DNA of 64,000 nt, from assembly GCA_964016885.1 (NCBI GenBank), contig OZ024740.1, forward strand, positions 268,212,001 to 268,276,000. Reading direction: 5' to 3'. Below are positions 2,655 to 47,248 of the stretch, piece after piece (position 1 is the stretch's first letter; each line of letters begins with the position of its first letter). A program made the translations under genes and the position numbers. Source of the stretch: Eledone cirrhosa (lineage: Eukaryota). The notes under the pieces are model-generated. The model saw only the letters and a program-made list of their open reading frames with translations, was not told the DNA's origin and did no database searches.

Positions 2655-3269
2655 GACACAGACATATGTATATAAGAAGATGAAGCTACTTAAATCGTTA
2701 CTCAATAATGGATCAATGGGTTTTAGAATTGGTGATATTATCATTCCTTAAACACCAAACTTTGGATACCGAAATGACATGGCGTCTCGATGTATACCCA
2801 TATCCGGGGAAACAATTTTTAATAGGATTTTCAATAATCTTAATATCAAATTTATTTGATGGTTATTTGTAAGAGAAGTGTTAAATCGATAATGTAATGC
2901 TTTAAAAAGGTACATACCGCTGAATAGGCAGATATTAGTGTTGCTACAATTACATTAAAAACAAGACCCTTCTGTGATTCTACTGAAATGTTTTCTTTTG
3001 TCTATACTGGTTAAGGAAGCAATGAATAATTTGGTGCAACTTTAACTCACCATAGCTTTTTTTATATTATAGAAAAATGCTTATATATATAAGGTTTAGA
3101 AAAATCCCCAAATGTACGTTTAAGCTATACGGTGGATTATACCACAACATATTTTGTTTTCTAATTTTGTCCTGATATATTTCTGTTGCCTCTAACATTG
3201 CTGACACGCAGAATCAGCTTAAGATCCCACATCCTATACATACACACACACACGCACACATATATATAT

Positions 3270-3555
3270 CAGGATGTAGGCGGTAAAAAACAATTAGACC
3301 ATTACTCACCAGAGTACTCGATACTCGGGGTAGTAGAGTGGATAATATGAAAATGCATTTTTCATATAAATATATATATATATATACGAAGGAATTGTGG
3401 TAAGGAACTAGACTACACAATACTTAGGGTAGTAGAGTGGGTAATAGGAAAAGGTAAGACTCCGACGGCAGAACTCAAGCCGTTTCGACGGCTATTTCTA
3501 GACTAGAAATACCCGTCGAAACGGCTTGCGCTCTGCCGTCGGGGTCTTACCTTTT

Positions 3556-3560
<5 letters not shown>
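3270..3560. mobile_element. TA-flanked palindromic (foldback/MITE-like) element fragments; near-perfect hairpin at 3444-3560
   Basis: ATAGGAAAAGGTAAGACTCCGACGGCAGA...CTAG-A-CTAG...TCTGCCGTCGGGGTCTTACCTTTTCCTAT; the motif CCAGAGTACTCGATACT..GGGT.GTAGA.TGG.TAATA.GAAAA is shared with 13014-13256. Confidence 0.65.
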
Positions 3561-9686: not shown

Positions 9687-9896
9687 GTATATATATATAT
9701 ATACATTCATGTATACGTCGTTAGTTCAGACCACCAATTCTAATATATATATATATATATATTGGAATTGGTGCTCTGAAATAGCGACGTATACATGAAT
9801 GTATGTACAGTGTATTTGGCAACACACTGTATGCTTAATTAAAAGCATTTTGAAGACCTTACGCAATTGTTTTGAAGTAGTGACTATATCACTATA

Positions 9897-10509: not shown

Positions 10510-10564
<55 letters not shown>

Positions 10565-11389
10565 TAATAAAAATAATGAATAAAAACAAAGAAACAGTTC
10601 CTTATATTAAAAAATTCAACATTTTACGATCGTTTCTAGGATATATATGCTGTCTTCAGAAATAATGATATTTGTTTATTGAAAAAAAACAACAAAGATT
10701 TAATATAATAGGTCTGTTTGGGAACAGGTTTTAAATTGACCAATAGATAGGTAGTAAGTGGTCAAGTTGATAGAATAGTAGTAGTAGAAATTTAATTTAG
10801 GGGTAGAGGAATGCAGACTTCAGTTTTGAATGGAAAGAGTATTTTGAATGAAAAGATTACTTTGGGGATGAAAATAACCGGTGAAAGGTACACGAAAAAT
10901 TGATGTTATTAAAGAATAATGCTAATGTTAAAATCTAAGGAGAATAAAATTTTACGATAAATGTGTTAGTGAAAAATATCAATCTTATTTAAAACATAAG
11001 GAATTTAGATCTATAAAAAGAAAATAAATTAATTTAATTGATAGGTATATTTATATGGATAAATTTATATTAATTCATATAGATATGATAAATAAGAGTT
11101 AGATGTAATTAAAGAATGTTGTTAAAAACGAAGGAAAAATATTTTTTTGGTGGGGATAAATGTATTAGTGAAAAATAACAAACTTATATAGATTACAAGG
11201 AATATAGATTCATAACCTGAAATTAAAATAGTTTATATGTATACTTAATGGTATAAATTTTAGGAAAAGATAGCTGTAAAAGGGAAATAAAATGATGCAG
11301 TTCATTAGTAGTAGAATATTAATTATAGGTTAACTAATTTAAAAAAAAATTTTATTATAATAATTTGTAAAATATAAGTGTATATTAAT

Positions 11390-12268
11390 TAGGTTTATAA
11401 TATTTAAAAGTTTTTCTAATTCTATGATTACATGATATAATTAATTCTTGTCGCTTATTTAATAGGATATCCTCAGATTTCATTATTTCAAAAAGTTCCT
11501 GGGAACATAATCTACATTCCTACCTATTATTTTGATAAGGGGTGGCCCTTTTGAGCACACTCCAGGTCAGGTTATAATCGATATTCTTTTTTCTATAATT
11601 ATTAATTATTTCAGCTAAGGACGTTGTATTAGCTAATGCAGCATTTTTAAAACTGTGTTTGTGGGTATTAAATCTTACTTTAAATTGGTTAGAAGTAGCT
11701 CCTATATATAAATAAGTTGAGTCCTTAGTGTTAATTTTACATTTATATACTATGTTATTAATAAGGCAATTTCCTTTTAATGGGAAATTTGCTTTGTTTC
11801 TACAGTTACAACCTTTCGCGAATGTTATATCAGGGGAGTTAGTCAAATTAGGTGTGGAACTTTCTCGACTTGTTGTATGTGAATGAGATGGTGGTTTGCT
11901 GTGGTTTATTTTAGTATTATGGTTAGTTTGATGTATTGGTGGTATGTTTATGTTTTTCTTTTACATTTATATGAATTAAAGGCACTTATATTTTGTTGTA
12001 TATTTTTGGTTGTTGAGTAGGAGAATTTGACCGTTGATCTATTTAAAATTTGATGGTATTTATGGTTTGGCCGGAAGTTTTTCTCTAGGATAGTAACAAA
12101 TTTTTTAGGTATATTATCTTTAATTTGTAGATTAAATGGAGCATTATACCAAGTAACTCGTCTATTACGGTTTCGATGTTGTTTTTTATTTTTATACGAT
12201 GTATCCTGATGTTTACTAAGAGAATTAGTATTAGTGATTTTATTACACATATTTTTAGTTAGATTCAC
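11390..12268 (-). pseudogene. PLE linker plus GIY-YIG endonuclease, disrupted
   Basis: ORFs 11948-12268 and 11520-11846: CNCRNKANFPLKGNCLINNIVYKCKI...YLYIGATSNQFKVRFNTHKHSF...W; continues after a TAG as ECRLC...LLNKRQELIISCNH. Confidence 0.85.
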
Positions 12269-12655
12269 TGATTTAGGTGTTTTAGCCTGATTATTAGAAA
12301 TTTTGTTAGTAATGTTATTAACATATATTGGAATATTAGGATGAATGGTTTTTTGAAAGTTATTATATTGTATTTTAGAAGAGATAGAGAAATTAAGTTT
12401 TAAGTTGGTATTTTGGGGTATAGTGTTAGTGGCATTTAGGTGTGTATATTTTATTTGGTGTTTGTTGGTAATATTGGGTTGTATGTTTGTAGTATTATTG
12501 GTACAAGGTATATATACTAATTTGTTTTTGTGGCCGCTTCTAGCTAAAGCTTCGTTATAAAATACTTACTACCTTTCTATTGGTCAATTCAAAACCTGTT
12601 CCCAAACAGACCTTTTATATTAAATCTTTGTTGGTTTTTTTCAATAAACAAATAT

Positions 12656-12792
12656 CATTATTTCTGAAGACAGCATATATATGTGTAGGTATGTATATTC
12701 CCTCTGATAGTTTGTAAAAAAATTTACATAGATCTATATGATATACATACCAACACACACATATATATCCTAGAAACGATCGTAAAATGATG
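12656..12792 (+). ncRNA. Type I hammerhead ribozyme in PLE pseudo-LTR (mirror copy 10617-10667 on minus strand)
   Basis: Stem I CATTATTT/AAATGATG, CTGAAGA, long stem II hairpin, GAAACGATCGTA (palindromic stem III ACGATCGT, GUA cleavage triplet). Confidence 0.75.
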
Positions 12793-12980
12793 AATTTTTA
12801 ATATAAGGAACTGTTTCTTTGTTTTTATTCATTATTTTTATTAATTTATCTTGACTCTGTTTTCCTGTGTTTTTCATCGAAAAAAAAATTTTTGAATACA
12901 TCTTCTCTTTTCATGATATTTGGATTACATTGACTTCTTCATACGGATTGGACACTACCGTATATTTTGGTAGATTTATC

Positions 12981-13013
<33 letters not shown>

Positions 13014-13015
<2 letters not shown>

Positions 13016-13256
13016 AAGATGGGGTGGTAAGATACCAGGTGGATCATAATGAACCAGAGTACTCGATACTTTGGGTCGTAGATTGGGTAATATGAAAAGA
13101 TTCAGGACCCCGACGACCGTTCGGATCTAGCTGTTGAAACGGCCGGAGGTCATCCATCCGGGTGCTGAATCTTTTCATATTACCCACTCTATTACCCCAA
13201 GTATCGAATACTCTGGTGTGTTATGTTCCATCTGGTATCTTACCACACCCTCTTTG
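13014..13256. mobile_element. TA-flanked palindromic MITE/foldback element (arms about 95 bp)
   Basis: CAAAGATGGGGTGGTAAGATACCAGGTGGA...GAAAAGATTCAG is inverted by CTGAATCTTTTC...TCCATCTGGTATCTTACCACACCCTCTTTG. Confidence 0.7.
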
Positions 13257-13259
13257 TTT

Positions 13260-13275
<16 letters not shown>

Positions 13276-13901: not shown

Positions 13902-14046
13902 CAAAGAGTTATTTAATTTGTTGGTTATTCAACAAATTCAATTATAACACATTCGAAGATTTGAAATTTTTTTCACTATCCAAACTGGACTTAAAACGAT
14001 TAGGTCTTGTTTTTTGGAAATGTCAATATTTATAAAACAACTTTAG

Positions 14047-14107
14047 TATTTTATCTGATGAGAGCGTACCAAAATGTTGGTACCCTTGAAATATATATAA
14101 TAAAATA
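14047..14107 (+). ncRNA. Type I hammerhead ribozyme in an ORF-less PLE end (about 13900-14151)
   Basis: Stem I TATTTTAT/ATAAAATA, CTGATGA, stem II core GTACCAA-aatg-TTGGTAC, GAAATATATATA; the downstream ~55 bp match the 59161-59220 family. Confidence 0.75.
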
Positions 14108-20414: not shown

Positions 20415-20780
<366 letters not shown>

Positions 20781-20861
20781 GTTGTGTATAATGGTAGCTA
20801 AGGTGCTTCCATAGGCGGTATGCCAAAATTAGCACTCGGTATTCATCAGAGTAGAGTGTAG

Positions 20862-20945
20862 ATATTATAAAGAAAACGAAAAATCAGTGATGCATCAGGA
20901 CTTAAGTCCAGATGCATCACTGATTTTTCGTTTTCTTTATAATAT
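20862..20945. repeat. Near-perfect 84-bp palindrome
   Basis: ATATTATAAAGAAAACGAAAAATCAGTGATGCATCAGGACT|TAAGTCCAGATGCATCACTGATTTTTCGTTTTCTTTATAATAT. Confidence 0.85.
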
Positions 20946-20959
20946 ATATATATATATAT

Positions 20960-21543
20960 AAATATCTTTAAGTCGTTTGGAAGCCTCGACAATGCAAGTG
21001 GGTAAATCTCCGGGTAACAAGATCCGGTGGTGGAGAGAGTGATGTAAGTGGGTGTACGTTGAGATGCGTAGTGTGTATGAGATGTGTAGAAGAATGAAGG
21101 AAAGAGTATAAAGGATAAAATAAAAAATAACAACACGAGAGAGAGTTACCTTGGGAGAGATTTAATAGTCCCTATATATTTCGGATTCACATCCATCAAC
21201 TGGGGGACGCGTTTCGCACCTGTCCGACAGACAACCTTTCCCCCACCCCGGAAAACCCCCAGTTGATGGATGTGAATCCGAAATATATGGGGACTATTAA
21301 ATCTCTTCCAAGGTAACTCCCTCTCGTGTTGTTATTTTTATTTTATCCTTTATACTCTTTCCTTCATTCTTCTACACATCTCATACACACCACGCATCTC
21401 AACGTACACCCACTTACATCTCTCTCTCCACCACCGGATCTTGTTACCCGGAGATTTACCCACTTGCATTGTCGAGGCTTCCAAACGACTTAAAGATATT
21501 TACTTATTATTCCACAATGCTTCAAGCAAACTTCAATACTCTC
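20960..21543. mobile_element. ORF-less inverted-arm plus tail element (PLE-type) in (TA)n
   Basis: Arms about 20960-21206 and 21256-21502, spacer about 50 bp, unpaired tail about 40 bp; arms contain hammerhead-like CCCCAGTTGA-TGGAT-GTGA-ATCC-GAAATATAT(A/G)GGG; spacer has GAAACGCGTC on the minus strand. Confidence 0.75.
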
Positions 21544-21561
21544 ATATATATATATATATAT

Positions 21562-21970
21562 ATGGTGGCTGCCAACTCGTTTTCGAGTACGGCCACTACT
21601 TTATATTCATGTAGGAGAACCCCTACCGATGCGCTGAACGAGTGTGACTTTTTAGTCCAGCCAGCGACTTGAAAACTCTGGTACAAAAACTACACTTGTG
21701 ACAATTATTGACACATAGTGCTGGGCCAATGGTACCACGTGATGACAAGTGCAGAGAGATCTCCAGATATAAAGCAATGCCTGTGCCGTGAAGCTTTTAT
21801 AGTGAGCAAAGGCACTGTACAAAGCCAGTCCCACTCTCTTAACCAAGATGATATTTACCAAAAAGAAGAACAAGTCAACATCATTGGATACCATCAGGGT
21901 TGCAGGTGTTATATCAGAGTTTTCCTTCTACTAGAATTCTGCCTTGACAAACGCTAAGGGGTCATCTCTC

Positions 21971-21972
<2 letters not shown>
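21562..21972 (-). mobile_element. Bipartite RTE-derived non-autonomous retroposon (SINE-like)
   Basis: Near-identical to 27281-27692, 35912-36240 and 43115-43495; 3' end GGCCGTACTCGAAAACGAGTTGGCAGCCACCAT. Confidence 0.8.
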
Positions 21973-22020
<48 letters not shown>

Positions 22021-22027
<7 letters not shown>

Positions 22028-22540
22028 TATATTACACAAAGAGAAGTGTGTTACACAGTGAGATGTGTGTAAAGAATTATTACAAGTGAGTTTTACCGTT
22101 ACTGTATAGAGAACAATATCTACAGGTTTAGCAATTAAATAGAAAAAAACTAAGTCAGAATCAAATCTCTGAAGTAGAGTTTTAAATTACCAACCTTATA
22201 ACTATAAGTTTGCTGATACGAATCTAGTTCGTTTCCCCACAGAAATGTGCAGTTTAACAGCCCACAGGTTCATCAGTCACCAAATGTGGACAGAATTTGA
22301 TTCTGACTTAGTTTTTTTCTATTTAATTGCTAAACCTGTAGATATTGTTCTCTATACAGTAACGGTAAAACTCACTTGTAATAATTCTTTACACACATCT
22401 CACTGTATAACACACTTCTCTTTGTGTAATATATCTGTATTTGAGCTCAGAAGAAAATTCTCTATTCTTCTTTCAGCTATTATTATTATTATTACTGTGA
22501 ACTGCGGAATACTCTTAATTCCGATCCTCGTATACTTATA
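22021..22540. mobile_element. ORF-less inverted-arm plus tail element (PLE-type) in (TA)n
   Basis: Arms about 22021-22168 and 22291-22440, spacer containing a hammerhead, tail about 100 bp. Confidence 0.75.
22209..22284 (-). ncRNA. Type I hammerhead ribozyme
   Basis: Reverse complement: TTTGGTGA-CTGATGA-(stem II, weak)-GAAACGAA-ctaga-TTCGTA-TCAGCAAA; stem I 7 of 8 pairs, 5-bp stem III, GUA triplet. Confidence 0.7.
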
Positions 22541-22551
22541 TATATGAATAT

Positions 22552-23340
22552 GTATATAGAATTCACAAGAATCAAAGCTATGTTCAAAGCATTTATTCAC
22601 TTACAGTTGTTTCATCCAAACCTAGGCTTGGAATCTTCGGACCATTTTTCAATGTTGTACATATAATTGACCTCCTTTCCAACGCAAGAGACATACAGAT
22701 ACATATACATATATTGATGTACAGTGGAGTGACATATATTATACTATACTATTTTTGTACAGCAATTCAAATTCAAAATCAAAATCAAAATCAAAATCAA
22801 AATTAAAATTAAAATAAAAATTAAAATACATTCGGCAGATAACACAGATAATGCAGGAGGTTAGTTCGATAGTCTAACCTCCTGTATTATCTGTGTTATC
22901 TGCCGAATGTATTTTAATTTTTATTTTTATTTTAATTTTGATTTTGATTTTGATCTTGAATTTGAATTGCTGTACAAAAATAGTATAGTGTAATATATGT
23001 CACTCCACTGTACATCAATATATATATATGTATCTGTATGTCTCTTGCGTTGGAAAGGAGGTCAATTATATGTACAAACATTGAAAAATAGTCCGAAGAT
23101 TTCAAGCCTAGGTTTGGATGAAACAATTGTAAGTGAATAAATGGTTTGAACAAAGCTTTAATTCTTGTGAATTCTATATAACTGCTCTGTAGAACAACTG
23201 ATGTTATTACATTGAGCTATTTATCTTACTGGTAATAAGGTAGTAATAAATTACTGACCTTCACTGTTTAAGGTTTAAAATATACATAACTATAAAAAGT
23301 TTAATATATACATAACCATAAATAGTATCCTTAATATTAT
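22552..23340. mobile_element. ORF-less long palindrome (arms about 310 bp, 9-nt loop at about 22865-22873) plus 160-bp tail, PLE-type
   Basis: Arms visible as reverse complements; hammerhead-like CCGAAGA-TTTCAAGCCTAGGTTTGGAT-GAAACAATTGTA followed by AATAAA at 23093-23141; same family at 43555-43838. Confidence 0.8.
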
Positions 23341-23354
23341 GTGTATATATATAG

Positions 23355-23578
23355 GGAGTGTAACTCAGCGTTACTGCAAGTTCACCCGGGTGAGCACTCG
23401 ATGTCTAGGTTCACTTCTGTGTTGAGGTGTAGAGCTATACAGAGTGTAATATATTGAAAGGATAACAAGGACGATTGGTTACTCTGTCATTACATTTATT
23501 GGTAGGTGACGCGCGTTTCGCCACTGATCAGCTCAAGGTTCGATCTGTATCGATCTTACTCGACTCTATAATCGGCAG
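23355..23578 (-). mobile_element. Probable PLE 3' end with hammerhead 3' half
   Basis: Reverse complement ...GTGGC-GAAACGCGCGTC-ACCTACC-AATAAA; palindromic stem III ACGCGCGT; 5' core not clearly present. Confidence 0.4.
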
Positions 23579-23580
23579 TA

Positions 23581-23656
23581 CAGGGTGTCCCCTAAAATAA
23601 TATACACATTTCAACAGCATTCTAATAAAAGTGTGTATACATTTTTGAAGACACCT

Positions 23657-23658
<2 letters not shown>
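23581..23658. mobile_element. Very short Tc1/mariner MITE
   Basis: TA-CAGGGTGTCCCCTAAAA...TTTTGAAGACACCTTG-TA; related copy at 44559-44658. Confidence 0.7.
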
Positions 23659-23740
<82 letters not shown>

Positions 23741-24624
23741 TGGCATATGGATTGGTACATCTGAAGTAATTGGCTGGTTCAATGACCTGAATAATAAAAA
23801 CAAACACAAATTTATTCAGTTTGACATTGCCAGTTACTATTCTTCCATTTCGCCTTCACTCCTCAACAACACTCTATATTTCGCATTTAAATATTCTGAC
23901 ATTACCACAGATGAACTTTACATCATTCTCACTGCAAGAAAAACTATCTTGGAATTCAACAATGAATATTGGACAATTTTGATATCACAATGGGTGCTTC
24001 GGATTCATCGCAATTGACGGATTTGATTGGTATCTTTATTCTGAATTCTTTAAATCGGAAAATTCCTCAACTTCGCGTGGAATTTATCGTGACGATGCCC
24101 TTTTTACTATCTTGAACTGTAAATTAGTCAACCTTAATATTATTAAGTACAATATACTTGATCTATTTAAGCACGATAACCTTAAAATTGAATTTGATAA
24201 CAACGTCAAACTAGCTAACTTCTTGGATATATCCCTTAATCTTGAGACTGGCCTATATTACCCTTACCATAAAAACAACGAGAATCTAAATTATGTTAAT
24301 TTTAAATCTAACCACCCTACTAACGTTAAAAATGCTATAGTCAGTAATATTGAAAAAAGAATCTCAAATATATCCTCTAATAAAGTTACCTTCGACGCTA
24401 ATGCCAATTACTATAATAATGCGCTTTCCAAAGCCGGCTATCCTGATAAAATTAAATACAGTAAAGAAACCAATCATCGAAGGACTTATAGTAAAATAGT
24501 TAATTATGAACACTCCAATAACTTAAATAAAAGACCTAGATACAACAATATGATTCGGTATAATGCTCCTTTTTTTATCTATCACTGATAATATTCCTAA
24601 ACTATTCTTTAGGGCCTTAGATAA

Positions 24625-25410
24625 ATGCATATCTATAGTAAAATATTTAACAAACATACAATCAAATTTTCTTATTCCACCACTTCCAACATCTCTAACA
24701 TTATCTCTAAACACAATAATAAAATATTAAGTAATAAATTACATCCACCCAACACTGAGCGTCATAATAATAGCAGTAGTAATCCCGACGTCAATATTAA
24801 CTCTAGGCTAGATTCAGAAAATTTAAATGCAACGTCAAACGTAACTTCGTTGAATGTTCATAATACCAATCTAAATCAGGAAACTATAGCTCCTATCGTA
24901 AATAAATTCTCCAATCCAATTCCTTCTATAAATAATACTAGATCACTTGTTAATAACTCTGTTAATTTCTCTAATCGTAATTGTAATTGCCCTGTTAGAA
25001 CTAAATGTCCTCTTTATAACCAATGTCTTGATAAAAACTTAGTGTATGAATGTAAGGTTATAACTGGTACTAATTATTTTACCTATTTCGGTTCCACTTC
25101 CACTTCCTTTAAAGCAAGATTTTATAATCACAAATCGTCTTTTAAATACCTATTTAAAAGAACTAACACGGCACTCTCAGAACTCATATGGTCCTTAAAA
25201 GAAAAAAATATTAACTATAACATCTCTTGGAGCAAGGTTTGCTACGCCTTTCCTTACCTGAATTCCTCCCCATCCAGAACATGTAATCTCTGCCTAGCCT
25301 AGTAATTTACCATTATATCTAATTTTAATTCTATAATAAATAGACGTACGGATTTATTTTTGCTCTGCTTGCATAAATCCCATAGAACATTCTATGAAGT
25401 ATATAGCTAA
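24625..25410 (+). pseudogene. PLE linker plus GIY-YIG endonuclease, premature TAG-TAA after CNLCLA
   Basis: ORF 24625-25302 in the track; homology continues as IINRRTDLFLLCLH. Confidence 0.8.
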
Positions 25411-26410: not shown

Positions 26411-26479
26411 ATTTTATCTGATGAGAACGCAGATATCATCCCATGATGATATTTGTTTTTGAAATGCGCATAATAAAAT
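26411..26479 (+). ncRNA. Type I hammerhead ribozyme at PLE 3' end
   Basis: ATTTTAT-CTGATGA-GAAC-GCAGATATCATC-ccat-GATGATATTTGT-TTTT-GAAATGCGCATA-ATAAAAT; perfect stem I, palindromic stem III ATGCGCAT, AUA triplet overlapping AATAAA. Confidence 0.85.
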
Positions 26480-27236: not shown

Positions 27237-27692
27237 AAGGGCAAAGGAGCTCTTAAGAGTCAATGGCCATCCAAATTCACCGGGAGAGATGACCCCTTAG
27301 CCTTTGTCAAGGCAGAATTCTAGGAGAAGGAAAACTCTGATATAACACCTGCAACCCTGATGGTATCCAATGATGTTGACTTGTTCTTCTTTTTGGTAAA
27401 TATCATCTTGGTTAAGAGAGTGGGACTGGCTTTGTGCAGTGCCTTTGCTCACTATAAAAGGTTCACGGCACAGGCATTGCTTTATATCTGGAGATCTCTC
27501 TGCACTTGTCGTCACATGGAACCATGGGCCCAGCACTATGTGTCAATAATTGTCACAAGTGTAGTGTTTGTACCAGAGTTTTCAAGTCGCTGGCGGGACT
27601 GAAAAGTCACACTCGTTCAGCGCATCGGTAGGGGTTCTCCTACATGGATATAAAGTAGTGGCCGTACTCGAAAACGAGTTGGCAGCCACCAT
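27237..27692 (+). mobile_element. Bipartite RTE-derived non-autonomous retroposon
   Basis: Head resembling RTE 5' UTRs (CTAGGAGAAGGAAAACTCTGA); 27554-27631 translates as HKCSVCTRVFKSLAGLKSHTRSAHR*; 3' stem-loop and ATGT-like tail. Confidence 0.85.
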
Positions 27693-27773
27693 GTAAGTAT
27701 ATATATACTTACATACATACATACATGCATAAATAAATGTATACATACATATTTACACACATACATACATACT

Positions 27774-35911: not shown

Positions 35912-36240
35912 CCCTGATGGTATCCAATGATGTTGACTTGTTCTTCTTTTTGATAAATATCATCTTGGTTAAGAGAGTGGGACTGGCTTTGTGCAGTCAC
36001 TATAAAAGCTTCACGGCACAGGCATTGTTTTATATCTGGAAATCTCTCTGCACTTGTCATCACGTGGTACCATTGGCCCATCACTTTGTGTCAATAATTG
36101 TCATAAGTGTAGTGTTTGTACTAGAGTTTTCAAGTCGCTGGCTGGACTAAAAAGTCACACTCGTTCAGCGCATCGGTAGGGGTTTTCCTACATGGATATA
36201 AAGTAGTGGCCGTACTCGAAAACGAGTTGGCAGCCACCAT
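35912..36240 (+). mobile_element. Bipartite RTE-derived retroposon, 5'-truncated, long (ATGT)n tail
   Basis: Matches 27354-27692. Confidence 0.8.
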
Positions 36241-36323
36241 GTATGTATGTATGTATGTATGTATGTATGTATGTATGTATGTATGTATGTATGTATGTAT
36301 GTGTGTGTGTATGTATGTATTAA

Positions 36324-36511
36324 TTGTTTCTACTTTAGGCACAAGGCCAGCAATTACCCAGTGCATTACTGGTACTTTATTTTATCGACCCCGTAAGGAT
36401 GAAAGGCAAAGTCAACCTCGGCGGGATTTGAACTCAGATGGTAAAAGGATGTAACTATGCTGGAAAGCATGGCGTCCGACCCTCTACCGATACTGCCAAT
36501 CCACCGCCCCT
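36324..36511 (-). mobile_element. OR-like tRNA-derived SINE
   Basis: TGTTTCTACTTTAGGCACAAGGCCAGC...GGATTTGAACTCAG...TGCCAATCCACCGCC. Confidence 0.85.
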
Positions 36512-38220: not shown

Positions 38221-38286
38221 ATAGGAGAAAGTATGACCCCAATGTCAGAGCTCAAGCCGTTTCGACGGCTATTTCTGGACTAAATA
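38221..38286. mobile_element. Single arm of the 3444-3560 palindrome family
   Basis: CAGAGCTCAAGCCGTTTCGACGGCTATTTCTGGACTA versus CAGAACTCAAGCCGTTTCGACGGCTATTTCTAGACTA. Confidence 0.7.
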
Positions 38287-38299
38287 GGATTCATGGTTA

Positions 38300-40286: not shown

Positions 40287-40626
40287 AATACTTGCATACT
40301 TACATACGTATATATGAAAACATGGGAAAGCGGACTGAAAACGATTATATATATATATATATTTATATATAATGATAAACGTGGGAGAATTAACAGAAAG
40401 GACAAGACAACGAACGAAAACAAGGCAAAACGAAAGACAATATTTTAAGGGAAACCTTAAAAAATTATTTTTTTAAAGAAATAAAACGAAGACATAGAAC
40501 TTCTGGGTAATCACCCCGTTGAGGTGGTTGTGGCAATTTCGATTACTACCAACGGGATCACAGCGTCTGACACAAGTCTAATGCTGTCCAGTTGAGTAAG
40601 AGACGAAAGATAAGACATTGGCATAG

Positions 40627-40810
40627 GGACGGTGGATTAGCAGTGTCGGTAGAGGGTCGGACGCCATACTTTGACGCATAGCGTTACGCCCTATTCTGAG
40701 TTCAAATCCCGCCGAGGTTAACTTTGCCTTTCATCCTTAAGGGGTCGATAAAATTAAGTACCAGTAATGCACTGGGTAATTGCTGGCCTTGTGTCAAAAG
40801 TAGAAACAAT
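40627..40810 (+). mobile_element. OR-like tRNA-derived SINE
   Basis: GGTGGATTAGCAGTGTCGGTAGAG...GAGTTCAAATCCCGCCGAGG...AGTAGAAACA. Confidence 0.85.
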
Positions 40811-42251
40811 TAGTTTACAGCAATTAAGCTACAATTACACATAGAAAGTTATGTAGAAAATGAGGTCCCGAAAATTATGTAGAAAATGAGGTCCCGACGG
40901 TTGAGCACTTGCCGTTTCAATAGCAAAGAGGTGGGTAGACAGAGAGAATGAGAGAGACAGAGACATAAGCTTTGTACTCAATACTTTTGGAACGATGTAT
41001 AAGCCAGTAATAGTATATTGCACTCTTTTGTTCGATATTTTATGATTGTTTACTTCAGGTTACACACATTAACTCTGGTTAAATTTCATTCTCATATCCC
41101 TGGAGAAAATCGTGATTATGTCGATATATTTCTTTTGGCAAGGTGATTCTTATTAAGCATTAATGTATAGGTTATGCACAATAACCTTGCTATCTCATCC
41201 ACTATTTGACTAAGCATGTAACAATTTGGGTCTCTTTAGCCTACAGCAATAGTAGTTTAAAGCTAGAATACATTATACTAAACAGGTAAAGTCCTCCCTC
41301 TTGTAATATTCTTGACGTCTGTCCAATTATGTCGATGATTTTTGTTGCTATGTTTTTCCTTGCTTTCTTTCGTTTGTTCATGTGTGGTTTTTCGTGACTG
41401 CTCAGTTAACTTGAATTTTGTTAGTTTTCCGATGTTATCGATTATATTTACTGTAAATTTGGTGAAGTGGCGTAATATTGATTGCTTGTGTATAGTTAGG
41501 GTAAATTACATCTAAAGTTGTCTTCGTTATATACAAGTAATCGATGCAAAGTTGTTCCCTAGTCTTTCATATGGATATCTATAGATTCCGATACACTTCC
41601 TTACATTAGGTTATTAAAGATTTTGATTGAAGCAATAACAGACTCTTGTCTTTCTGATTAGTCATCTTTCTTTTAAGTAGTATTCCAAGTGGTGCGTTTT
41701 ATTACTCATAACTAGAGTCAGGATCCTTAACCAAAATGGGTTTTAGATATTATTCTACTCATATGTTTCTATTTGTTTCATTCGCCGGATTTCAGTCATG
41801 CTGGGTGATGTCGTCAAGTGTTTTAGTCGATTATATCGCTCAGAATTTATATCAGTCTGATATTAGTTTCACCAATCTCTGTTTATCGAACCGCTGTGTT
41901 ACGAGACATAACACATTCAACGTAAAGACGACACCGGTGTTTAGGAAAGTATAAATATAAACATAGACAAAGTCACACACACACAAATACACACACAGAT
42001 TCACGCATCTCTCTATGTATCTACATATCCATCGATCCATCTATCTTAATGAAATGCTTAATGACATAATCATCTTGTCATTTATATGTGTGTATGTATA
42101 TAGGCATATGAACCCTGATGGAGTCTTAGGGACTCCGTAGTGACATTTAAATCTGGTGGAGAGTGTCCCCTCTCTAGGTTTGAAAGCAGGTGGGGTTTTT
42201 TCTAGAGAAGGAGAGAGAGAAAAAGAGAATGAGAGGGGGGATAGATATATA

Positions 42252-43114: not shown

Positions 43115-43495
43115 ATGGTGGCTGCCAACTCGTTTTCGAGTACGGCCACTACTTTATATGTAGGAGAACCCCTACCGACAGCGACTTGAAAACTCTGGTA
43201 GGTACAAACGCTACACTTGTGACAATTATTGACACATAGTGCTGGGTGCATGGTACCATGTGATGACAAGTGCAGAGAGATCTCCAGATATAAAGCAATG
43301 CCTGTGCCGTGAAGTTTTTATAGTGAGCAAAGGCACTGCACAAAGCCAGTCCCACTCTCTTAACCAAGATAATATTTACCAAAAAGAAGAACAAGTCAAC
43401 ATCATTGGATACCATCAGGGTTGCAGGTGTTATATCAGAGTTTTCCTTCTCCTAGAATTCTGCCTTGACAAAGGCTAAGGAGTCATCTCTCCCGG
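43115..43495 (-). mobile_element. Bipartite RTE-derived retroposon with small deletions in the zinc-finger end; 3' stub also at 44066-44116
   Basis: Matches 21562-21972. Confidence 0.8.
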
Positions 43496-43554
43496 AATGA
43501 ATATACATACCTACATACCTACATACCTACATACATACATGCATATATATATAT

Positions 43555-43937
<383 letters not shown>

Positions 43938-44507
43938 ATAATTTGGGAGGGTGTAAACAAAACTAAACAAATTCAGAAACGAAATATATATATATATATA
44001 TATACATATATATATACATATATATATATAAATAAATATATATACATACATCTATACATGCATACATGGTGGTAGCTGCCAACTCGTTTTCGAGTACGGC
44101 CACTACTTTATACCCATGGTATAAGGGTTGCTTAGATACAGAGTATCCCATCTAATTCAGCTACTGTCGAATCACTGAAAGCGATTTTAGGATAGACTCC
44201 TGCCGCCATATTGTCGACTTATGACTAAGAGCCTTCATCATGTCTTGTCTACTCCCATCACTACTCCCTCTATCACAATAGGACCTAAGACACAAAGTTT
44301 GTAAGTACGAAAATTACCTACACATTATTTGATTTAAGTGACATGTGAATGTGCAACACACATACCACCCTCTGAGTATTAGTCATAGTAATCCAGTGAA
44401 AAGATATAAAACAAGATGGCTGGCCTATAACTGCAACCGAATGCTTTATTATCTCGGAGTTTGACTTCTCCGGGTTAGATACGACACTCTAGCAAGTGTG
44501 GAGTCGA

Positions 44508-44936: not shown

Positions 44937-46185
44937 CAGTAATCCCCCGCTATATCGCGGTTCACTTTTCGCGGTCCCGCTACATCGCGGATTTTTCTTT
45001 GGAACGTATCTAATTTCCTATTGTAGTAATCCTCGCTACATCGCGGATTTTTCTTTGGAACGTATCTAATTTCCTATTGTAGTAATCCTCGCTACATCGC
45101 GGATTTTTCTTTGGAACGTATCTAATTTCCTATTGTAGTAATCCTCGCTACATCGCGGATTTTTCTTTGGAACGTATCTAATTTCCTATTGTAGTAATCC
45201 TCGCTACATCGCGGATTTTTCTTTGGAACGTATCTAATTTCCTATTGTAGTAATCCTCGCTACATCGCGGATTTTTCTTTGGAACGTATCTAATTTCCTA
45301 TTGTAGTAATCCTCGCTACATCGCGGATTTTTCTTTGGAACGTATCTAATTTCCTATTGTAGTAATCCTCGCTACATCGCGGATTTTTCTTTGGAACGTA
45401 TCTAATTTCCTATTGTAGTAATCCTCGCTACATCGCGGATTTTTCTTTGGAACGTATCTAATTTCCTATTGTAGTAATCCTCGCTACATCGCGGATTTTT
45501 CTTTGGAACGTATCTAATTTCCTATTGTAGTAATCCTCGCTACATCGCGGATTTTTCTTTGGAACGTATCTAATTTCCTATTGTAGTAATCCTCGCTACA
45601 TCGCGGATTTTTCTTTGGAACGTATCTAATTTCCTATTGTAGTAATCCTCGCTACATCGCGGATTTTTCGTTAAAACATATCTATTTTCTTATAGTGGTA
45701 CGTACGTCTGAATAGAAAGTATTTAAAATTTAAACTTATTAAATAAGTTTCGATGTGATTGAAGTGTATAGCGTAAGAAAGGGGCAGCTTAAAGCTTTAA
45801 CTATTAAAAAAATGTTTATATTTTTCATTCCATTACTGTTTTACTGATTGTGTTTCTCTTTAATATACTACAAATCCTTCATAGATTGACGGGAGATGTG
45901 CAGTATATTGCCAAGTAGCTAACGTGGCTAGTAATGGTCGTCATTGGTAACACGTGGTACGATGGTTGGTGGTAGTTTCTATATGATCGTTACTGGCTGT
46001 TTTTGGTGTTTAAATACAAAAGTGTGTTTTAATGAGTTTATATGTACTTAAAGCGTGTAGGAGATTTATTTTAAGGCTTAAACTATGAAAACAACGGTTG
46101 TCTTTAGGGTCACTCTATAACGCGGATTTTCATTTATCCAGGTTGGTTCTGGAACGTATCCCCCGCGATAAACGGGGGATTACTG
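44937..46185. mobile_element. pogo/Tigger-like non-autonomous DNA transposon with TA target duplication
   Basis: TA|CAGTAATCCCCCGCTATATCGCGG ... CCGCGATAAACGGGGGATTACTG|TA. Confidence 0.85.
44978..45690. repeat. 56-bp tandem array, about 12.5 units, apparently identical
   Basis: Unit GTAGTAATCCTCGCTACATCGCGGATTTTTCTTTGGAACGTATCTAATTTCCTATT; GGAACGTATC recurs at 45001, 45057 ... 45617. Confidence 0.95.
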
Positions 46186-47065
46186 TATATATAAGTTGTG
46201 GTATTACGCATTGCTTTTCAAAATGTAAATATCTGTATGTAATGTCAGTATACACATTGTGACACTCATAATGCCTGTTGCACTGTACTCGTTTGGAAAT
46301 CCCAGGGCTTTAGATATTTACGATTATCATTGATCTTTGTGAATAATGAAAGTATTAATATCTTTCCAGTAAATTATCAAAGAGAAAACTATTGGATTCA
46401 CTTAAACGGAAACTTGAATATAAATCTTTTTATGTAAATCTTTTTATGTAAATATTTTATGTAAATATTTTATGTAAATGTTTAAACCAATATAATATTC
46501 AGCTAATCATCTTTCAAATAACTACTATCAACACTTAATATAAGAAGATATCTGAAAACAAAGGAGTACTCTAAATCCATTTAAGAACTTCGCAATTGTT
46601 CCAGTCTATTGCCAGTTCGCTTATACATATATTATCCTCATTTTCTGGTTTAAATTCAACAAAATAACTTGACAGATTTTTCATTTCAACAGTTGTTATT
46701 TTTTTTAATATTTAAACCGAATTAATTCAGATGAACTAAGCGATCGAACTGTTCCTGATTAAAATTATGTCAATGCAATTAGATATAAGAGGATTCTGAA
46801 ATGTTAAATAGAATAACATATTAAATGATTAATGCTAATTATTGATTCCTAATGTTGGCAAAGGATTACAAATTTCAGTGAAATTAAAGTCGATTTATCG
46901 ATTTTAGTGTATTTTATAAATACGTATTTTATTGACACTTCGGAATGATGAAAGGTAATGTCAACTCCGGCATGGTTTGAACACAGAATGAAAAAGAAAT
47001 ATACCATAAGACAATTTTCCCAGGGATCCACCGATTTTACAACACTTTATTTAGAATCTAATATT

Positions 47066-47248
47066 TGTTTCTACTTTAGGCACAAGGCCAGCAATTACCC
47101 AGTTCATTACTGGTACTTTATTTTATCGACCCCCGTAAGGATGAAAGGCAAAGTCAACCTCGGCGGGATTTGAACTCAGATCGTAAAGGGACGTAACTAT
47201 GCTGGAAAGCATGGCGTCCGACCCTCTACCGATACTGCCAATCCACCG
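47066..47248 (-). mobile_element. OR-like SINE with 12-bp target-site duplication
   Basis: TSD GAATCTAATATT at 47054-47065 and 47249-47260. Confidence 0.9.

Follow-up and report, generated by a model that had tools for sequence, protein, structure and literature searches.

Endonuclease-positive (EN+) Penelope-like elements (PLEs) insert with 5' truncation, as partial tandems and with an inverted, 5'-truncated copy lying head-to-head with the first, in (TA)n in the case of Hydra, and their tail is described as present "often" or "optionally" at one end (PMC8557442, PMC3846280, PMC8969392; all papers are cited here from the portions of their text available to us). In those portions of PMC8557442 and PMC11167929, the origin of the inverted repeats and of the one-sided tail is stated as open. 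Elements of this layout were analyzed in a 64,000-nucleotide stretch of the 3.0-Gb genome of Eledone cirrhosa (contig OZ024740.1; hereafter the window), with positions 20960-23340 as the focal range. A sequence-only reading of that range had described three elements, each with an inverted arm, a short spacer, a second arm and an unpaired tail, and had proposed either PLE truncation products or a class of non-autonomous, ribozyme-bearing foldback retroposons without an open reading frame (ORF).

The element class, its layout and its (TA)n target are already known from the available text of these reports. Our reading, to which we assign a probability of about 0.7, is that the hairpins are head-to-head PLE insertions in (TA)n in which each cut strand primes its own complementary DNA (cDNA), the two starting from different sites on the RNA. 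The pairing rule, the arm asymmetry and the duplicated hairpin set out below were not found in the literature searched, which excluded supplements and subscription papers; nor, with supplements outside that scope, were tails of 79-165 nt or PLE anatomy in a retrozyme-like monomer.

Two other described systems are close. The purified protein of PAc, an Anolis PLE of the Poseidon type, cleaves and extends both strands, two internal reverse transcription (RT) starts bound its tail, and the protein, which works with uncleaved RNA, has been modelled as a dimer (PMC11167929). Its likeness to the elements described here lies in these paired starts bounding the tail, a stem-loop at the start, cutting and extension of both strands and an AT-rich target; the main text of that paper does not pair the two sites within one insertion and leaves the inverted arm unexplained. 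Retrozymes lacking long terminal repeats (non-LTR retrozymes) have been proposed to depend on PLEs (PMC7229834, PMC7761336, bioRxiv 10.64898/2026.07.22.740005); the available text of PMC7761336 knows of no motif pointing to the partner. Non-autonomous Chlamys elements have been described (PMC8557442), and opposite-strand pairs of minimal hammerheads 100-700 bp apart in Schistosoma were ascribed to truncated PLEs (PMC4209133). Against these descriptions, the pairing of one tailed with one tail-less end is a near-strict rule here, tails of the Hydra-type families measure 79-165 nt rather than the 30-40 bp published for EN+ PLEs, and Hydra-type units span 3.6-5.6 kb, whereas the available text of PMC8557442 gives <3 kb for the Hydra clade.

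Elements of the focal range and their families

Families were lettered A (20959-21547), B (22021-22538), C (22553-23340), Z (20775-20948), E (from 58858), F (from 60686) and G (from 9696); a provisional D is the same as C. Unit positions are counted from the tail end (0), and the copies in the window are as follows.

20775-20904, minus strand: tailed arm of Z, a Hydra-type PLE 3' end with a 79-nt tail
20903-20948, plus strand: tail-less arm of Z, Hydra-type PLE 3' end
20959-21206, minus strand: tail-less arm of A, unit -41 to -287
21202-21547, plus strand: tailed arm of A, unit -342 to the tail end, the last ~41 nt being tail
22021-22290, minus strand: tail-less arm of B, unit -96 to -365, exceeding the tailed arm in length
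22292-22538, plus strand: tailed arm of B, unit -243 to the tail end, with the tail at 22441-22536
22553-22874, minus strand: tail-less arm of C, unit -161 to -464
22874-23340, plus strand: tailed arm of C, unit -454 to the tail end, with the tail at 23181-23340
43553-43839: second copy of C, tailed arm 43553-43774 (minus), tail-less arm 43774-43839 (plus)
58858-59035 (minus) and 59031-59310 (plus): arms of E, a Hydra-type PLE 3' end with an 81-nt tail
61681-61953, plus strand: second copy of E, tailed, in one orientation only
60686-60805 (minus) and 60787-61349 (plus): arms of F, a Neptune-like PLE 3' end with a 33-nt tail
9696-9893: two pieces of the 317-bp G monomer, tail-to-tail around a TA run, without a hammerhead

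The inverted arms of the focal elements are real. They align with 248 identities, 7 mismatches and 2 gaps in A, 149, 1 and 1 in B, and 295, 11 and 7 in C (self-BLAST E 2e-92), an identity of 94-99% that is far beyond chance; overall, arms are 90-99% alike, short of the perfect double-stranded RNA source that the sequence-only reading had envisaged. A tail is present on one side only (~41 nt in A, 96 in B, 160 in C), TA runs border all three elements, if short or degenerate around C, and no BLAST homology links A, B and C within the window. In these respects the sequence-only reading was borne out. The short spacer that it listed as a separate part is instead the surplus of the longer arm, tailed in A and tail-less in B. 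Its further element at 43555-43838 is the second copy of C, and its possible one at 9701-9895 does represent an ORF-less family, as the two G pieces rather than as a hammerhead-bearing hairpin. An unrelated LINE-like end lies inside the focal range at 21564-21972, and the Z hairpin and tail nearby at 20775-20948 had been missed.

Divergence of 1-6% between arms, asymmetric junctions, outer ends fixed per family and unmirrored flanks all argue against long-read foldback or assembly artefacts as the source of the palindromes, as does the publication of the same layout for PLEs. Both B and C also occur in DNA reads (four runs), including raw Illumina reads of a second study. On the other side, DNA reads were placed on 22033-23336, none of those listed bridging the junctions of the locus and the centre of C being skipped as a repeat, and one retrieved palindrome of >9 kb (locus L191, below) takes in its own flanks. 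An artefact of this kind is scarcely credible.

Copies elsewhere in the genome were sampled by a DNA search with each element, in which the best 40 candidates were scored and 20-30 loci retrieved. First-look candidates, which are not copy numbers, came to 2894 for A, 1137 for B, 2513 for C, 916 for E, 1503 for F, 1776 for Z and 776 for G. Family B was searched twice (best 40 of 1137 and best 40 of 494 candidates scored) and yielded 60 loci, 30 of them selected on the region from tail to unit start. A further family, K, came from a protein search in which the best 150 of 9223 candidates were scored; 40 of the 150 were hand-picked among long open frames, the family being sampled on its ORF start. 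Most family samples are top-scoring matches to tail-containing queries, and only K and the second B set, chosen on an internal stretch of the unit, are free of that bias. After all loci had been placed on one natural unit per family and duplicates taken out, 260 distinct loci remained, of which 127 were whole head-to-head copies; the others were single-orientation, of other form, or ran past the edge of the retrieved stretch.

Pairing of tailed and tail-less ends

Two outer ends are fixed in every family. One is the tail end; the other, tail-less, lies at -36/-41 in A, -96 in B, -160/-165 in C, -81 in E, -33 in F, -79 in Z and -29 in G. Among the 127 whole head-to-head loci, 106 combine a tailed with a tail-less end, 2 are tailed at both ends, none is tail-less at both and 19 have an end elsewhere, such that 106 of 108 classifiable copies carry one end of each kind. 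The mixed copies are flanked by TA on both sides in 83 cases and on one side in 21.

The samples free of tail bias show the same pattern. In K, whose outer ends lie at -107 and at about +5 to +11, all 13 resolved head-to-head copies among the 40 loci are mixed (P=1.2e-4 against 0.5); in a further 11, one end is masked, elsewhere or beyond the retrieved stretch, and the remaining 16 loci show a single orientation. The 12 new loci of the second B set comprise 8 mixed copies, 1 with two tailed ends and 3 others.

An inverted arm is lacking in 19 of 56 B loci. The hairpin arises at insertion and differs from copy to copy; it is not a fixed feature of a family. Miniature inverted-repeat transposable elements (MITEs) or DNA foldback transposons were set aside as an identity for these elements: the ends are offset by the tail, lengths vary and many copies occur in a single orientation.

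A hairpin motif beside both ends

In B, C, E and Z, a CTC, a 9-26-nt stem-loop and a GAG follow just 3' of both fixed ends (8/8 sites), and if the definition also admits a T-(T/C/A) bulge of two bases and loops of greater length, the motif is found at 10/10 start sites in B, C, E, Z and K. Its background is 0.8-1.8% of positions in autonomous units, 9.5% in B and 1.3% in the window. Two examples lie in the focal range.

22446-22476, plus strand: hairpin after the tail-less end of B, with GAG reading CAG in this copy
23185-23216, plus strand: CTC-loop-TTGAG hairpin past the tail-less end of C, a candidate RT start signal

The hairpin at the tail end of B agrees with that of C at 18/20 nt, the sole homology found between B and any parent. 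In Hydra-type families, the enzyme is likely positioned by this hairpin, which reads CUC-loop-U(U/C/A)GAG in the RNA and lies just 3' of each site. Further Hydra-type families were seen at loci L029 and L124, in which a CTC...GAA (L029) or CTC...GAG (L124) hairpin stands ~30-45 nt before the ORF start.

Inner ends and asymmetry of the arms

The inner ends of B, C and F are dispersed, with 6/93, 4/60 and 2/36 ends, respectively, in the densest 11-bp bin, and those of A (-363, 13/75), Z (-253, 16/52) and E (-275, 13/36) are clustered; the E hotspot is weaker than those of Z and A because -275 coincides with the query start. A cluster of C ends seen at -775 with one reference unit disappeared with a second and was discarded as an artefact. 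The A, Z and E hotspots sit at YCANW words, which we take to resemble the initiator consensus, and for this reason they may mark the 5' end of the RNA. Microhomology to TA could account for them instead, and several of the A hotspot copies fit that too.

In 99 mixed copies made of two pieces, the arms overlap at the junction by 1-10 nt in 50, by more in 4, are blunt in 11 and are separated by extra bases in 34 (overlaps are approximate, being taken from BLAST ends). In 44 of these copies the tailed arm extends further than the tail-less one, in 28 it is the tail-less arm that does so, and 27 are near-symmetric. Where both arms lie within one unit, 14 of 76 copies, window B among them, have a tail-less arm extending >30 nt further in, with the tail only on the tailed arm. 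Each arm then holds sequence that the other lacks, so neither can have been copied from the other unless a deletion followed.

This asymmetry bears on the main rival, in which a single cDNA is made, the reverse transcriptase folds back or switches onto it and so produces the inverted arm, and the tail remains once the endonuclease has cut back one end (ideas found in the available text of PMC3846280 and PMC8557442). The 14 copies would each need a secondary deletion under such a scheme, and a similar hairpin at both ends of Hydra-type families suits two start sites better. Foldback does account for the 27 near-symmetric junctions, shared alleles and mixed ends follow from it naturally, and arms that cross a tandem junction, as in many K copies, hold both sites and could be copied from each other. 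We consider it unlikely.

Alleles were compared at polymorphic sites in A, B, C, F, G and Z, where discordance is 10-24% within an element and 43-52% between elements. In terms of two-site priming, the shared alleles suggest that both arms come from the same source, and the 14 asymmetric copies that both are RNA-derived.

Autonomous parent elements

In five families (A, C, E, F and Z), the window elements are 3' ends, truncated on their 5' side, of autonomous PLEs that are present elsewhere in the genome. The parent of A is a 3333-bp unit with an ORF for reverse transcriptase and GIY-YIG endonuclease, and that of C is a Hydra-type PLE with a unit of 3.7-4.2 kb. The tail continues into the parent ORF in 7/59 A, 5/54 C, 2/30 F, 1/30 Z and 0/30 E loci; the E junction was observed in locus L197, and the Z tail reaches the ORF in L181/L193. 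The tail of A continues in frame into the ORF start, and the claim that the focal elements lack an ORF therefore stands for the copies and fails for the A family. All five parent families show partial tandems (pseudo-long terminal repeats, pLTRs), variable 5' truncation and an inverted 5' copy.

Pfam RVT_1 scored above cutoff for A and F, and GIY-YIG above cutoff in F and below it in A. For 6 of 9 proteins Pfam returned no family, the Hydra-type proteins not being recognised, and RT and GIY-YIG motifs in the C and E proteins were identified by alignment. Both carry the full Hydra motif set: RW(R/H), DKT, a CxCX5C linker and terminal CxxC and CxH, with no CCHH. The N-terminal RW and DKT are invariant across C, E, Z and K, and the Z ORF is known as pieces 42% identical to C. 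By the motifs listed in section 11 of PMC8557442, C, E, Z and K can be assigned to the Hydra clade, and all four are inserted in (TA)n. The F ORF has a CX4CxxC linker and is Neptune-like by the criteria given in the available text of the same paper. Family K is a young Hydra-type family (loci L330-L399, e.g. L370) with a 3603-bp unit, a 107-118-nt tail and many intact ORFs of ~785 aa at 96-100% identity, which makes it a natural source of enzyme.

The hairpin and tail that had been noted at 58864-59310 and 60690-61345 do recur there; they are 3' ends of families with ORF-bearing parents (E and F), and F has no convincing hammerhead. A further degraded Hydra-type PLE, with RT and GIY-YIG frames, lies directly after C at 23347-25302.

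ORF-less monomers B and G

Families B and G are low-GC monomers that occur as partial tandems. The B unit measures 545 bp and has stops in all six frames; past its tail, non-coding sequence leads back into the same arm. This crossing from tail to unit start is seen in 41 of 56 B loci, half of the retrieved loci having been selected on that junction. The longest B arm is 888 bp, or 1.6 units, and two hammerheads are present in L050/L051. In G, a 317-bp ORF-less unit, the crossing is seen in 17/20 loci and the longest arm is 489 bp. No family-linked PLE ORF was detected in the 60 retrieved B loci; PLE protein matches in 3/30 and 4/30 of them each lie outside the element. A search for a parent of B gave the 20-nt match to C only, none in K and no weaker relative among ~330 retrieved loci.

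That B is the stub of an unsampled autonomous PLE with a long 3' region would be compatible with the scoring of only top candidates (best 40/1137 and 40/494). Copies longer than one unit, however, wrap into the same 545 bp, and a non-coding unit start follows the tail where other families have their ORF; we hold this explanation to be very improbable. By sequence, B and G appear to be non-autonomous and fit the non-LTR retrozyme or non-autonomous PLE kind with PLE-type insertion anatomy. They are likely mobilised in trans, and the helper of B is likely a Hydra-type PLE because B carries the CTC/GAG hairpin at both sites. Family G is without that hairpin, so its helper may differ.

Like non-LTR retrozymes, B and G are ORF-less, AT-rich tandem monomers that contain a type I hammerhead motif and reside in a genome where PLEs are active. 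Unlike them, B occurs as dispersed partial tandems of at most 1.6 units with at most two hammerheads per arm, and has a PLE-type inverted arm, a tail, two fixed ends and the start-site hairpin shared with Hydra-type families. Family B offers genomic evidence that PLE machinery inserts a retrozyme-like RNA, and its hairpin is a candidate for the signal that is recognised.

The proposal of one new class of non-autonomous foldback retroposons, with a hairpin fixed per family, draws on the ORF-less, hammerhead-bearing state of B and G and on the recurrent inner ends of A, E and Z, by which near-identical short hairpins recur. It is largely refuted and retains very little probability: parents with an ORF exist for five of the seven families, no common inner end is shared by the copies of B, of C or of F, and 19 of 56 B loci are without an inverted arm. 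The idea of a single shared ORF-less class in the sequence-only reading accordingly fails for A, C, E, F and Z, and its estimate of at least five ORF-less families in 64 kb falls to two of seven. Of the two origins it had offered, truncation of PLEs describes A, C (=D), E, F and Z, whose inner breakpoints are for the most part scattered, and does not describe the closed monomers B and G; these are non-autonomous and carry hammerhead motifs, as its second option had it, without being foldback elements as families.

Family G is also represented by loci L296 and L309, and diverged relatives (about 78-85%) are present in other loci. At positions 4162-7906 of L191 (C4:332938000-332947900), a G-related 309-bp unit with a hammerhead motif forms 4 + 8 near-identical copies arranged head-to-head. 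They occupy the middle of a palindrome of >9 kb that extends into the flanks and is either a real inverted duplication or an artefact. Support for rolling-circle copying from this 12-unit array was set aside, since the array lies in a suspect palindrome.

Hammerhead motifs

Hammerhead calls were made with our own type I descriptor, alongside an Rfam scan at gathering score over 14 sources. The motifs in named elements of the window are listed below.

22209-22284, minus strand: type I motif of B, with cleavage predicted to fall between 22217 and 22216
23089-23135, plus strand: hammerhead-like motif of C, variant core CCGAAGA, weak stem I
59115-59180: canonical minimal motif of E, with a mirror copy in the other arm
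10659, minus strand: motif of the PLE at 10561-12985, canonical by descriptor

By this descriptor, canonical motifs in the window belong to E (both arms) and to the PLE at 10659, and none is present in the three focal copies of A, B and C. The claim of a hammerhead in each focal element therefore holds in part. The B family motif has canonical type I topology, as does the motif of the G family unit, and the window copy of B departs from it by a single mismatch in stem I and by an A.G where stem II begins at its base. The C family motif has a variant core (a U4-to-C change) and a weak 4-bp stem I, and A retains the 3' half only. No convincing hammerhead was detected by descriptor in F or Z, and a CTGATGA at 20849 in Z was rejected, as its matching second half is absent. 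For the Hydra clade this is a departure, the motif being canonical only in E and the window PLE.

Across B copies, the core, stem I and stem III differ from the commonest letter by 2.4-2.5%, compared with 3.4% in the rest of the unit, 8-12% in loops II and III and 39% at base pair 10.1/11.1. In the Rfam scan of the window, the best 150 of 294 matches are mostly sub-threshold hairpins of microRNA type. Stubs such as these can be misannotated as MITEs or microRNA hairpins. Two further canonical minimal motifs lie on the plus strand outside the named elements, at 14040-14107 and 26411-26479.

A model of two-site priming

In the proposed mechanism, a protein with reverse transcriptase and GIY-YIG domains, probably a dimer, would cut both strands of a TA run. 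From one target 3' end, reverse transcription would begin at the tail-less site, and from the second one at the tail site. Each cDNA would end prematurely or where the 5' end of the RNA is reached, and the two would then be joined, often by microhomology. The tail would correspond to the distance between the two RT start sites. With the hairpin at both of its sites, B would be open to mobilisation in trans by a Hydra-type PLE, the template being a tandem or circular RNA.

In L1 twin priming, two target ends prime two cDNAs that are joined head-to-head with microhomology; the internal position at which the second primer anneals varies, and there is hardly any overlap between the arms. In the elements described here that second position is constant and overlap of the arms is nearly complete, hence the hairpin.

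Several points weigh against this model and its extension to B. Tail-less pairs could not appear in most sets because the queries contained the tail. The CTC/GAG hairpin was defined post hoc, its loop limit was widened to admit the tail-less site of K, and it is absent from A, F and G. The shared alleles could stem from later gene conversion between arms, and the allele test in E was uninformative (one site, 9/9 discordant). No autonomous partner of B was found in the families sampled. The Rfam scan gave 0 hits, the window copy of B adopts no hammerhead fold at minimum energy (z -0.62), and the hammerheads of B, G, E and C are sequence motifs for which cleavage is predicted only. In vitro, no difference between strands was seen in how the Anolis PLE uses its start sites, according to the available text of PMC11167929.

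A stronger form of two-site priming is evenly poised between right and wrong in our estimation. It would make priming at two RNA hairpins obligate and the inverted copies fossils of the dimer's two reactions, and the CUC/GAG hairpin would let B-like monomers hijack Hydra-clade enzymes, as the missing cis link between retrozymes and PLEs. The pairing rule, the arm asymmetry and the shared hairpin lend themselves to direct tests in the existing in vitro system.

Other features of the window

Three further entries of the window are the following.

10561-12985, minus strand: truncated Hydra-type PLE with its tail-less end at 10561, the assignment of the end being read off the sequence
12564-12985: inverted arm of this PLE, with a ~135-nt tail
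21564-21972, minus strand: 3' end resembling a long interspersed nuclear element (LINE-like, a putative label), 5'-truncated, without hairpin, with a C2H2-type finger in its translation

With its inverted arm, tail and hammerhead motif at 10659, the PLE at 10561-12985 does show the design that had been noted around it. The LINE-like 3' end recurs at 27282-27707, 35912-36243, 43115-43502 and 44063-44118; it is abundant (1513 first-look candidates) and 5'-truncated, and its fixed end lies within (TA)n or (TACA)n.

Tail-less, MITE-like hairpins lie in TA runs at 13005-13265 and 3444-3560 and are weakly related to pieces at 3261-3494 and 38221-38287. A dispersed ~190-bp repeat is present in five copies at 83-97% identity (36321-36509, 40625-40812, 47062-47248, 51433-51621 and 418-576), and positions 44978-45700 hold 12.9 tandem copies of a 56-bp unit that are 98% alike.

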